Shown in pieces: positions 1 to 33,000 of a stretch of DNA of 64,000 nt. Source of the DNA: Candidatus Obscuribacterales bacterium (GTDB taxonomy: Bacteria; Cyanobacteriota; Vampirovibrionia; Obscuribacterales; Obscuribacteraceae); assembly GCA_965228855.1 (NCBI GenBank), contig CBDDIJ010000003.1, forward strand, positions 2,208,001-2,272,000. The letters run 5' to 3'. Position 1 is the stretch's first letter, and every line of letters begins with the position of its first letter. The position numbers were made by a program.

Positions 1-3000
1 ACCGCTTGAAACGTTAGACCTCGAAGGCACTAAGGTTTCGGACGCAGGTCTCAAAGAAGTAGCGAAAATCAGGACGCTATCCTATTTAATTTTGTCGACA
101 TCGGAAGTGACGGCATCAGGTCTTAAGTACTTAAAACCACTCAACTATCTTCGCAATCTGTACATCGGCGAATTGGTCATTAACTCTGCCGACTTGAGAA
201 GCAACGCGCTAAACTTCGCGCCGAGCTGCTCCGTCTGGTTCAATCACATAAACCAGAATGACATCAACAAACTGCGAGACGAATTTCCCGACCTAAATTT
301 CAACGAAACCTACGGCGTTATAGCGTCGCAGCGCAAGGAGGCTGAGAGTCTGGCTGCAAGGTCGAAGCGCGCGGCTTTGATAGAAGCTGCTGAAAAGTTC
401 AGAGAAATAGTCACCACTCTCGAGAGGATCTACGGCAGTGAATCCCCGCGCCTGCGTCATCCAGTTTTAAGTTTAGCGTCGGTAGAGATGAGACTTGAGA
501 AGCCTAATTCGACACAGATCAAAACTGACTTGCTCAGGTCTATAAGGCTGAGTCAAGCCGCGGCGGACGTCGAATGCGAGCATGATGGACTGCAGTTACT
601 ATCAATCGAATATTTGAGGGAATTGGATTGCGACAATGCAAGTTCTACTGTCAATAAATCACTCGACTTAGCTGAAAAGATCGAAGCCAAAAATCCGGAG
701 AGAATTCTCGAGGAATACGAAAAGTGGTCTCGCTCGATTCTGCAGTCAAGCTGTGTCGATCGGGCTCAACAGCTAGCGGACCGCGGTTTGAAATTCGCAA
801 TGCGAATGAAAAATCCCAATATGGAAATGCTCGCCGCTCTCTTCCAGGTAAAAGGAAACGTCGCGAAACACACCAAACGGTACGACGATGCGATCGCATT
901 TTTTCGAAAATCCGCGGAAGCAATGGATACGCTTAAACCATTCAACAAGAAGCAATCTATAAATCAAATTTCGAACTACGCATCTCTGGCGGACTGCGAA
1001 GGTCTTCGCAACGAAAACGAGAAAGCTTATCGCTACACGAAGAAGGCTAGAGCTCTCTGCCAGACTGGCATCCCAAGCGACACCCAGGTGCTCATTTACA
1101 CTCAAGCTCTTCATTATGGTGAGTTGATTAACTGCTCGGAAGAGGAACGACTTGCTGTTCAAGAGCGATTGGAGAAGCTGAAGGTTTCCGCTTCCAAAAG
1201 GTAGTCTCAAATTTTTCCAAAACCATTGCGAAAGAGCGCAAATCCATAAATATATGTAGGGCAAAGCAAGGGCGATGCAAGATGTAGCCAATCGGCTACA
1301 CGATTACGCGATGAAACTTTGCCTTTTGAATACATTGCGTTCCACTTGGATATCTGCATGAACAGCGCCTTTCCAAATGTAAGGTAGCGAAAATTTTCCC
1401 TAGTTCTAATTAAGAAAACGCCAGCATTTGACACTCGAATTCTACAGCGACGAAACATTCACGCAAGTGTTCCCAGATTGGAGAGGTTTAATAAAACTCG
1501 TGTTATCAGACTCGAATCCGGCACCTCGGAACTCTTACAGCTAACTTTCGGGCCTTTTTGGGCGACCCCCTGCGTATCTTCCGTCTTTACTCTGACCGGC
1601 CAGTTGCTAAACTTCCTGAACTCGGCGATCACGAGACCATCACAACAGCATGTGTTGTGGGGCGGCTTTGCTGCGCCTTAAAAAATTCGGCTCATCAACC
1701 TTGAGCCAAGAAAACCGAGTGTTTTAACTGCCTCCATCGCAGCAAAAGGGCATGGCATCACAATTCCACTGGCATCCCGGAATCCTGGTCAACCGTAAAT
1801 CCTAACTGGTAAACAGAATGCAATCGATAAGAGTGCAATCCAACAAAACTCAATCGCGTTTCATCAGGAGGTTTGGAGCCTCCTTTTTGGCGTTCTTGAT
1901 GTTCTACAGCACGACGGCTGCGTGGGCTAACCCAGAAAGTGTGCCAGTTCAACTGAATACCTCAAACGCCAATCAAAATTGGCGGGCGGCGCGCGAGGAA
2001 TCGCGCGCTTTGCGGCATGAGATGCGCCAGGAAGCGCACATACAACGTATTGAAGATCGTCAGGTGCGAGTTAACCCGGTCGTCACTCCCGGCTTCCAGT
2101 CGGGTCTTGCGAACGAAATCCGCAATGCGCTACAAGCTGATCGAGTGCGCGGTCAGGGCGCGCTCGAACGTGGTATCACACGTGGTGAACGTAAAGAGCA
2201 AAGACAAAACGCTCAGCACCACGATAGAAACACGGCTGTTCTGTATCCGGGTCAAGTTTCAACGTTCAGAACTGCGAGACCGAATGTCCCGACTGCTTCA
2301 ACCAGAGGTTCAAATCGCAATACGTATGTTAACGACGCGGGTAATGCAAAGCTGCTCAACAAGGGCGTTTCACTAGACCTCGCTTCGACCGCAAACAACA
2401 TAACCCTCGGGAAGAATATGCTCGACGGGACGGTCACTATCGACGTGGGCGGCGTCGACAAACAATTCGCAGCGGGCGACAAAGTCACCGCCGCTGAATA
2501 CGCAGCTATCAATCAGAAAGTCGCAACAGGCTCGCAAGGTTTAACACTTTCGAACAAAGGTGCAGCTACTGGCGGAGCGTTGAATATAAACACAATCAGC
2601 GATGACGGAAAAACCATTCGAGCATCAGAACTCGTAGTACCTCAGTCAGTTTCAGTAGTTGGTGACTTCGCAAGAAACGCTGATGGTGTGCGCGTCACAG
2701 GCGACCTCAACAATGCCGGTTCACTGTATGCGGTGTCTTCGAACGCCTCAAAAAATACCGCTGTCATCGGAGCGCGTGACATAAACAACGCTCAAGGCGG
2801 TTCAATCAGCACGAACGTTCCCACTTCTGTTTCGACGCAGTTCGGCGAAGTTAACTCGACACTAGACCTTTCTCTCAAAGCAAATCGCGATTTAAACAAC
2901 GAAGGCTCAATCACAAGCTCCGGCAATCTTGAATTGTCTGCCGGAAGAAAGATCGACAACTCGGGCATCGCAGAGGCGAGCGGAAACCTCTCTCTCTCCA

Positions 3001-30000: not shown

Positions 30001-33000
30001 TCGTAATGGAATCGAAGAACGGATTGGCAGTTTATAACATCAACGACACTAAGAAGAATTCTGTCGTCATCACCGCTGATGATAAGCAACTGACGCTCTC
30101 TCCAGGACGTCATGCTCTGGTCAGCAACCATGAAGAGTTTGTCGACGGCAATGCTGTAGAACTCGTCCAGCATCGCAACTTGAGCAGACTGAAACTGAAC
30201 AACGGCATGAAGGTCTTCACAACGGAATTCTCTATCCCGTCAGCCTGCTACGCTGTTAAACCGCTCAAGCAGTTGATGAGTTCGAAGCACGCAGAGGCCT
30301 CGAAGATGGCGAAAGGCATCCTCAAGACTACTGCAGTAATTATGACGTTGAGCCCAGACAAGGGAGATTTCGTCCAGTTCTTCAAACCAAGAACCACAGC
30401 GATGAAATAGGAAAAGAAATCTGCTATAAAAATCCAAACCTAGATGTTTGGAGAGCATTCCCTTGACTACAGTAGACGGGTTGGAACTCAGACAGGCTCG
30501 CAGCGAAGATCGCGATGAGATTCTGAACGTGCATGAAGCCGCGTTCGGCCGTGCGGCTGAAGCGAAACTAGTGGAGACGCTGTTAAACGACGGCGCTGAC
30601 ATCCGCGAGCTATCGCTTGTTGCGGTGCGCGATGGCAAAATCGTTGGTCACATTCTCTATACCGAGGTTCAAATCCTGGATGAGAAAAACAAAAATCTTT
30701 CCTCTATGGTGCGAGGCAAAGGCGGGATCCCCTATGCTGTCGCATTAGCACCGCTGGCGGTGCTACCGGCGCATCAGAAACAGGGCGTTGGGAAAGCACT
30801 GGCAAACGAGTCTCTAAAACTGGCTAATGAGCGCGGTCATGGCATCGTCATCGTGCTCGGACATCCCGAGTATTATCCAAAGTTCGGTTTCGAGCCGGCT
30901 TCGAAGTTCGGAATGAGTTCGCCCTTCGACGTTGCCGACGACGTCTTTATGGCGAAACCGCTATCGGCATTCAACGGAAAAATCTGTGGCAACGTCATTT
31001 ACCATGACGCTTTTATTGAGGTCGAATAGCTTACGACACGCTTCGCTTGCCTTTGATAGATTCGAGCAGCTTACGACACGCGTCGCTTCTCGTTAAACAA
31101 ATTCGAACAGCTTACGACACGCGTCGCTTCCCTTTGTTAGATTCGAACAGCTTAGGATCCGCGTCGTTTCCCTTTGATAAACTCGATGAGTTCTTTCGTT
31201 GCATTGACTGGTGCCGCCGAGCCTGGACTGCCATGCCAATCATGGCCCTTGTATTTCGGTAGCGTGATGCTGCGGATCTTTGCTCCTGTCGGCGCTTCCC
31301 AATCTCGCTCAATCACCGCTTCCGTTGAATCCTCTTTGATGGAAACTGCCTTTTCCTTATCATTTATCGAGTTTCCTCGAAGGTATCGTTGCAGAGTTCT
31401 CTCTTCCGAATCCATGTGCAGCCCGAACCAGCGACCATCAATCGGCGCCACTGAATCACGCTCTGACTGAATCGACATGAAATTCATACCTGGCGGGACA
31501 GGCTTCTCTTTTCCTGTCGTCCAACCGCTTACATCTACGAGGTTCGCTGGACGATACTTCTCTGGAAGTTCAGCCGCGGCTCTATGGGCGAAACTTGCGC
31601 CTTGCGAATAGCCGGTCAGAGTAATTCTATCGAGGTCAACGTTGTAATTTTTATTCAGTTGATCCAACACCGCAGTCGTGTAGCCTACATCATCTGTCTT
31701 GGAAAACGGATACTGCCCATTGTTGTAGGAGATGTCCTTTTTCGGATTACCACTCATGTAGAGAACGAACATGCCGTTCTCATCAGCCTCTTTGCTGAGG
31801 CCGGTCAATTCTTCCAAACCCGCGGCACCAGCTTTGGTACCACCGGGACCAGGCTTGTCACCCCATCCATTGAAGACAACTAACACCGGTGCAGGTTTCT
31901 GCGCATCGTAGTTCTTCGGCACATGCATAAATATCTCGCGCTGCGTTCCATCTACCGAAACCGACATCGGGACAGTGCTACCCTTTTCCACGCTCTCCGG
32001 ATTTGGAAAATCTATCTTCGTGCCCTTGTCCGATGCCGTCTTTTCAGCACGCATCGAATCCCAGGTCTCCGCCGACAGGTTTTTAGGCTCGCCCTCTTCA
32101 GAAGACTCCGAGCTTGCGTCTCGGTGAGACTTATGATGAATTTCCGTTTCATTGCTTCTTGGCATAGCGTTTCCCGGGCGGTCAGCAGCGACATCGCAAT
32201 CACCTTATTCCCGCTCCAAGAAGTCGTTAAACGCTGTCCAGCGCTGACTCAAGCCGAAATCCGGCGTCAAAAGAACTCGGCGAAAAGGTCGCAACTCAGG
32301 CTCCCAAACTCAGCGTTTCGGCCGGCTCTAACTAGAATTGCCGCACTACCGGCAACTTCAAATTCCGCCGCAAAACCATTATGTCAAGACACTCTTCGAC
32401 TGTTCGTTTCAAGTTGCCCTGACTTACGTCTTGCACACTAATTGAAGGAGAATACCGCAGACACCCGAGATACGGGACGCCTGTTCCTGTGATCATAAAC
32501 AGCTCGAAGTCGTCCTTGGATATGTACCGGTCCATGACCTGTGCTTCAAGGACATTAGTTTCAACCGTCGCCAGCGATAGAACTTGAATGCCGCCACTCT
32601 GCAGGTAGTTGAGAGACAAAGAGAGTTTTTCCAGAGCATCTGGAGCATGTTTCGCTACGAGAATAACGGGATAACCGAGGGACCTGATCAAATCCGTCGT
32701 TGTATACCACTCATGCGTGAGCTTGTTGAATCCATCCTTTTCGAAACTCAGCGGAGTTGCAACGGTCGTCGGCAGCTCGATAAAGGTTACAGCATCACGG
32801 GCGGTGCCCGTCATGATTATTTGATCCCACTCCGATTGACTTAAGGTCGGAGGAAACGACAAATGTATTGACGGATAGTCAACTGGCGTTCTGGTGATGT
32901 TGCTGATGAACGAATACTCCGGCGAACTCTTCTGATAGCGAGAGTAAGTCACAGGTTTGACGGCGCGAACCTTTCCGCTATAGTCACCAAGCACTCCAGC

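Follow-up and report, generated by a model that had tools for sequence, protein, structure and literature searches.

The giant fibre genes of the window

Within the window, i.e. the complete stretch of 64,000 nucleotides analysed, the forward strand harbours a gene (1818..30410) which, read from its first ATG, encodes a giant FHA/TpsA-like fibre protein of 9,530 residues (15% Gly, 13% Thr, 11% Ser, 11% Ala and 10% Asn). The first-pass annotation had placed this gene at 1887..30410. We prefer position 1818 since 1887 corresponds to an internal TTG codon, a start at which would truncate the signal peptide. This predicted Sec signal peptide occupies approximately residues 1 to 37 (1818..1928) and comprises a basic n-region, a hydrophobic core and an AWA site. 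It is followed by a family-wide N-terminal domain, a predicted β-helix (2298..3305) that is matched best by TPS secretion domains, and by the Gly/Thr/Ser/Asn-rich passenger (3306..29474), presumably also a β-helix, which ends in a conserved cap that likewise occurs in tail-less members of the family. An ADPP motif (29475..29486) closes the cap and is succeeded by a low-complexity linker rich in Ser, Ala and Thr (29487..29897). The C-terminus is formed by a domain (29898..30407) for which HMM, alignment and structure model suggest a FecR fold accompanied by a helical hairpin.

The giant reading frame is real and no assembly artefact since an equivalent open frame of 9,534 codons is kept in another genome (G168) and a strain of about 95% identity spans 29 of 30 bins between 10.5 and 30.4 kb, with one in-frame gap of three nucleotides among those listed; the spanning contigs may be the source of the study DNA itself. 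No internal repeats were found in the 9,530-residue protein at E ≤ 1e-10, and no Pfam family in its residues 1001 to 9333. The earlier statement that the passengers belong to no family, however, does not hold, as TIGR01731, which describes FHA-type β-helical repeats, exceeds its cut-off in four out of six passenger pieces tested and PF05594 does so in the second giant of the window.

This second fibre gene (33336..42191, reverse strand), recognised from its open reading frame and HMM matches, encodes a protein of the same family with 2,951 residues from the first GTG. It carries both end domains, namely the N-terminal TPS-like domain (40797..41807, reverse strand), detected by the N-domain HMM, and the C-terminal FecR-fold domain (33339..33851, reverse strand; tail HMM envelope 2781-2951). 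Directly upstream lies, on the same strand, the gene of an S41 protease of the CtpA/Prc type (42759..44117; Pfam PF03572, E 1e-55). Such a protease is the gene neighbour of one out of 45 fibres in the study genome, and its membership in the system is putative. CtpA acts on FhaB.

Fibre family and predicted fold of its end domains

The iterated tail HMM was built from the last 170 residues, the N-domain HMM from residues 166 to 330. In the study genome, which belongs to a non-photosynthetic relative of the cyanobacteria, the tail HMM returns exactly the 30 proteins reported before (iE ≤ 2e-44), in all of which the domain ends within five residues of the stop, as well as two weak full-length homologues (iE 0.001 and 0.017). 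These 30 proteins amount to 87,007 residues and thus to 3.2% of the genome instead of the 3.7% originally given. Their description as nearly all giant and endowed with a signal peptide requires restriction: four of them measure about 330 to 357 residues and contain no fibre, one being a remnant devoid of a signal peptide. In front of the 344-residue remnant, a fibre remnant was looked for and not found.

The family is larger than the tail-bearing set. The N-domain HMM identifies 45 haemagglutinin-like fibre proteins, corresponding to 4.1% of the genome, of which 26 possess and 19 lack the tail, and six further small proteins consist of the tail only. A signal peptide is recognised, by a crude criterion, in 47 out of 49 members of the family. 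The cap at the passenger end is common to tailed and most tail-less members. In the tailed ones, ADPP comes next (24 of 26), then the Ser/Ala/Thr-rich linker and, 110 to 184 residues after the motif (n = 25 members), the terminal domain. Eleven of the 19 tail-less members end at the cap, six in a Gly-rich stretch and two are cut within the linker; a search for a decayed tail behind two truncated fibres was negative. The stop at the cap recurs in 9/9 complete tail-less ORFs from four genomes of the same genus which, having been chosen for short frames, prove the existence of this form and not its frequency. All 23 members longer than 1,800 residues are tailed, compared with three out of 22 shorter ones. 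In a quick N-domain tree the tail state changes 11 times by parsimony, with at least four changes forced by strong branches. The fibre paralogues, up to 45 or more, are scattered over the study genome; transporter genes are not among their neighbours, and neighbour clustering there revealed no recurring partner gene. Across the Obscuribacterales, fibres reach about 14,000 residues or more.

The restriction of the tail to this order was reproduced, as 57 of 61 Obscuribacterales genomes contain it and none of 95 genomes from elsewhere in the class does. A metagenome scan yielded only two near-identical loci. Among the 61 genomes, all 40 that bear fibres also have tail proteins. Of the 25 genomes by which the order is represented in the class sample, seven show one to three tail matches and no N-domain match. 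Since the tail matches listed in these fibre-less genomes are frames of about 275 to 333 residues, the stand-alone tail protein constitutes the conserved core.

Structure prediction of the tail was reproduced with high confidence (pLDDT 91.2, pTM 0.87). While the earlier model is thereby corroborated, the accompanying view that it has no clear solved relative and represents a new fold had to be abandoned: the model shows a two-sheet all-β arrangement resembling, over about 108 residues and with motifs in register, the periplasmic juxtamembrane subdomain of FecR/PupR (PF04773; PDB 6ovm, 4m0h). It hence appears to be a new branch, peculiar to the order, of a fold already known. The fibre tail does not reach the cut-off of PF04773, and 15 of 31 stand-alone relatives match this family below cut-off (best E 0.013). 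Foldseek yielded nothing at E ≤ 0.001 for the tail or the N-domain model, nor did the tail, N-domain and barrel profiles give anything significant against the sequences of solved structures. In contrast to FecR-type anti-sigma regulators, the tail lacks the anti-sigma domain, the membrane helix and the STN subdomain, possesses a helical hairpin instead, and either terminates giant fibres or stands alone.

For the model of the N-terminal domain, the top four structure matches are TpsA proteins, and generic β-helices score at least 4 Z below the best one. Like the TpsA proteins FhaB, HMW1, HxuA and EtpA, the fibres feature a signal peptide, then a β-helix of predicted TPS fold, and FHA-type repeats; the cargo is a divergent TpsA-like family. 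It differs from these proteins in its tail of FecR origin and in that none of the 45 fibres contains the NPNG motif, a TpsA feature according to PMC5422565. The TPS domain family PF05860 matches no fibre, yet control genomes are equally blank.

TpsA-type proteins are regarded as dependent on a TpsB of the Omp85 family. Such a protein, with two POTRA domains and an Omp85 barrel, was not found in the 61 order genomes. The ShlB model matches in four out of five other genomes of the phylum and has no match in the study genome. Eight weak matches within the 61 order genomes were rejected as TpsB because all are BamA orthologues. A single Omp85 match is present in 58 of the 59 order genomes with any match. 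Neither TamB nor any TonB-dependent receptor or autotransporter barrel turned up in the study genome, which is 95% complete. It contains three secretins; a connection to these was discarded as the fibres show no linkage to secretin genes.

A small predicted outer-membrane barrel as candidate partner

The first-pass annotation had named no translocon partner; a candidate has now emerged. In 20 flank regions from eight genomes, one unannotated family with signal peptide lies beside fibre genes in six regions of five genomes. Its alternating strand pattern, comprising 12 strands by our own count as do autotransporter barrels, suggests an outer-membrane barrel. The family has no match in Pfam, NCBIfam or the PDB and counts 152 representatives among 1.84 billion. 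Six of 28 members weakly match the porin FomA. The closest named look-alike is BBP2_2 (PF10082; language-model score 0.94, 152 shared features), a Pfam family without match in the barrel. A crude barrel-strand score did not discriminate within the study proteome (BamA at rank 95), and a PTD motif common to the barrel and the stand-alone proteins was not enriched enough there to count as a signal (14 loose matches, two relevant).

The barrel is restricted to the order (24 of 26 order genomes, none of 95 others). Among the 61 genomes, 56 contain both tail and barrel, four neither and one is discordant, related genomes not being independent and the counts being matches. The four genomes devoid of both belong to two genera, each of which also has members bearing both. 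At least two barrel matches are present in all 40 genomes with fibres and in seven of the 21 without. Among the 30 best barrel loci, an N-domain or tail lies no more than 1.5 kb away in 16; upon exclusion of the five seed loci 11 of 25 remain, as against about one expected, a linkage which describes the fibre-linked paralogue since the barrel model was trained on these copies. In two genomes (G129, G170) a stand-alone tail gene immediately precedes the barrel, in two others (G130, G140) such genes lie about 4 kb or less from the core barrel copy, S41 proteases also occur near the core barrel, and in three genomes (G128, G141, G143) barrels flank fibres. A fibre of G154 shares the downstream genes but is preceded by no barrel, G142 lacks the barrel, and neither of the two barrel genes of the study genome lies beside an intact fibre. 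The predicted complex of the latter genome's barrel and tail (score 0.01) speaks neither for nor against binding.

Weak BBP2_2 matches elsewhere in the phylum pointed to a barrel of the cyanobacteria, which 17 of 151 genomes contain. A FecR gene with signal peptide lies within 1.5 kb of it at 17 of 18 loci and at about 2 kb at the remaining one. Small barrel genes of both groups are thus linked to FecR-type genes, the two barrels being possible homologues. The cyanobacterial partners, linked in this way without fibres, begin with FecR and continue into disordered repeats, whereas the fibres of the Obscuribacterales carry FecR at their end. The cyanobacterial barrel weakly matches NanC/KdgM.

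In type 11 secretion, Sec cargo is paired with a small outer-membrane barrel other than Omp85, as is predicted here. Compared with Slam (PF04575), no fused TPR was seen in the Obscuribacterales barrel, and the putative cargo is a giant β-helix. PF04575 matches none of the 28 members and nothing in G127 and G138, and one cyanobacterial barrel at E 0.19, with a blank control.

Proposed export of the fibres and role of the FecR-like domain

The evidence plausibly points to an undescribed export route. Tentatively, and at somewhat less than an even chance, we favour the view that the FecR-fold tail of the long fibres likely stays periplasmic and serves to dock or tether the fibre to the co-occurring predicted 12-stranded barrel, which would replace TpsB. 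The signal peptide should direct the protein to Sec, and the TPS-like domain, judged by its fold, would initiate passage as well as β-helix folding at the surface. That the unfolded chain passes at the small barrel, possibly with assistance from the one BamA, is suggested by the missing TpsB together with the linkage and co-occurrence of the genes. The linker of 110 to 184 residues behind the cap and its ADPP motif would span the pore with the folded FecR-like domain held back. As this domain could not follow, long fibres would remain cell-bound, and tail-less members of about 1,000 residues might be released or be served in trans by stand-alone FecR-like proteins. The analogy is to HMW1 and the FhaB prodomain: according to PMC5422565, a small periplasmic domain keeps TpsA attached to the transporter, and PMC4542190 describes the FhaB prodomain as periplasmic.

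A wider proposal, possible though somewhat more doubtful, is a new class of two-partner secretion in which a POTRA-less 12-stranded barrel and a FecR-fold domain, an old pair of the Cyanobacteriota, form an export-and-display unit. The Obscuribacterales would have fused FecR to FHA-like fibres and lost TpsB, FecR docking as POTRA does elsewhere ("split autotransporter"). If so, many non-regulatory FecR-domain proteins would gain a general role in surface display. Spending 3 to 4% of a genome on fibres without a recognisable TpsB calls for another route, of which the barrel and the FecR-fold domain are testable parts; since the pair is present in culturable cyanobacteria, the role of non-regulatory FecR domains and BBP2-like barrels can be addressed genetically there. 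In the literature searched, mostly excluding subscription papers, none was found which joins Obscuribacterales with hemagglutinin or DUF560 with FecR, nor one combining TpsA-like fibres lacking TpsB with a barrel-FecR pair. The main text of a preprint on giant genes (10.1101/2023.11.21.568195) mentions neither Melainabacteria nor Obscuribacter; its supplements might list such genes.

The tail had been interpreted as the sorting or anchoring tag of an order-specific export route. Its order restriction, its invariably terminal position and the large fibre family agree with this. An obligatory tag of the T9SS or PEP-CTERM type is not supported, since 19 of the 45 fibres lack the tail. A genuine sorting function of the tail, with recognition by the barrel, export starting from the C-terminus and tail-less fibres borrowing a stand-alone copy in trans or staying unexported, is in our view unlikely. 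Barrel presence does follow the tail (56 genomes with both, one with the tail only, none with the barrel only, four with neither) better than the N-domain (40/0/16/5), no fibre genome lacks tail proteins, and in cyanobacteria a protein encoded next to a barrel begins with FecR and continues into a disordered cargo tail. Against this, the 19 tail-less fibres retain signal peptide, N-domain and cap, a form conserved across the genus, the tail was gained or lost repeatedly, stand-alone copies also occur in fibre-less genomes, and the part common to the family is the TPS-like domain, located N-terminally. Like T9SS CTDs, which are bound by PorV, and PEP-CTERM signals, the tail is a conserved module that terminates many otherwise variable surface proteins. 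It differs from the former by its absence from those 19 fibres, whose export we infer, and from the latter, defined by PEP motif, membrane helix and basic cluster, by an alignment (A1) without PEP motif or uncharged helix and by its globular model.

It is rather improbable that the tail is an extracellular ligand-binding tip of the long fibres to which the linker lends reach. FecR-domain proteins of Leptospira are reported in PMC13719327 to be surface-exposed and to bind host proteins via this domain, and FecR proteins of the present analysis match the Lsa33/LipL45 models. Unlike variable adhesin tips, however, the tail roughly equals or exceeds the N-domain in conservation (mean column identity 42% versus 36%), and stand-alone copies are found in barrel operons.

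Similarly improbable is a translocation of the fibres by the single BamA with the tail plugging it, the barrel then being a co-inherited porin or glycan-export barrel for fibre glycosylation or uptake. One Omp85 per genome, the likeness of the barrel to BBP2_2, the NanC/KdgM matches and a multi-spanning membrane protein adjoining the stand-alone family at 13 of 40 loci (by eye a GT-C glycosyltransferase, without family match) would fit. Barrel copies, however, increase with fibre number and flank individual fibre genes, and the barrel-FecR linkage recurs in cyanobacteria without fibres.

S41 proteases occur next to one fibre and in the vicinity of the core barrel. A role of the tail in surface signalling, by binding an STN domain, e.g. 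of one of the three secretins, or in self-cleavage at the FecR Gly-Thr site is nevertheless very improbable: although the matching subdomain of PupR helps to bind an STN-type domain (PMC7186176), tail proteins have no membrane anchor or anti-sigma part, no TonB-dependent transducer was found in the study genome and no linkage to secretin genes, and conserved autoproteolysis was rejected as the aligned position holds Ser in 22 of 32 sequences, Ala in eight and Gly in two, and never reads Gly-Thr.

The retention module of LapA is N-terminal and part of type I secretion, in contrast to the C-terminal fibre tail; its model NF033682 weakly matches the N-terminal half of one FecR protein (E 0.016).

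Variant fibre genes and nearby S41 proteases

In six tail-less members of the fibre family of the genome under study (G000), 1,656-1,764 aa in length, Gly-rich repeats replace the cap, the conserved end of the fibre passenger (contig C3, 1724387-1734698, and four more genes). The fibre at L272:24-5468 (comparison genome G123, contig C55) is interrupted by a single in-frame stop, which leaves an N part of 1,200 aa and a second part of 614 aa that carries the C-terminal FecR-fold tail.

Directly upstream of the second fibre gene in the window lies a gene for an S41 (CtpA/Prc) protease (42759-44117). 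In four genomes (G000, C3:1068272-1069705; L238-L240) such a gene also lies at a distance of three genes from the core barrel. These proteases could control release.

Barrel copies and the outer membrane of G000

At G000 C2:1342785-1343495 (L253), the fibre-type barrel gene is faced by what remains of a fibre gene, a leader of 236 aa. Some barrel copies (L233-L236) carry disordered C-terminal extensions of 600-1,000 aa and are adjoined by Skp genes. Few known outer-membrane barrels turned up in the whole genome of G000: one BamA was found, while a search for TamB, a TonB-dependent receptor and an autotransporter gave none, yet LPS genes adjoin bamA. Two secretin paralogues stand in tandem (C3:2780998-2785777).

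Surroundings of FecR-like genes

The stand-alone FecR-like family, which has the tail domain without a fibre, shares with the N-terminal segment of the barrel a Pro-Thr-Asp motif following a proline-rich leader (L253, L203-L229, L147-L180). At 13 of 40 loci (L148, L154-L158, L161-L163, L166, L167, L170, L171) its genes adjoin that of a multi-spanning membrane protein of ~800 aa which, judged by eye, looks like a GT-C glycosyltransferase; Pfam gave no match for it. At G000 C3:561464-567431 a bona fide FecR gene, located 1.1 kb from a stand-alone tail gene, is followed by an 801-aa sensor-like gene (CHASE2-type by eye).

In cyanobacteria, the gene of a small predicted outer-membrane barrel adjoins a signal-peptide FecR gene at 17 of 18 loci (L281-L298; for example G047, C1:3292439-3294554), a pair of which we found no description in the literature. 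The FecR partners bear long disordered repeat tails of Gly-Asn-Gln, Pro-Glu or Asn-Pro.
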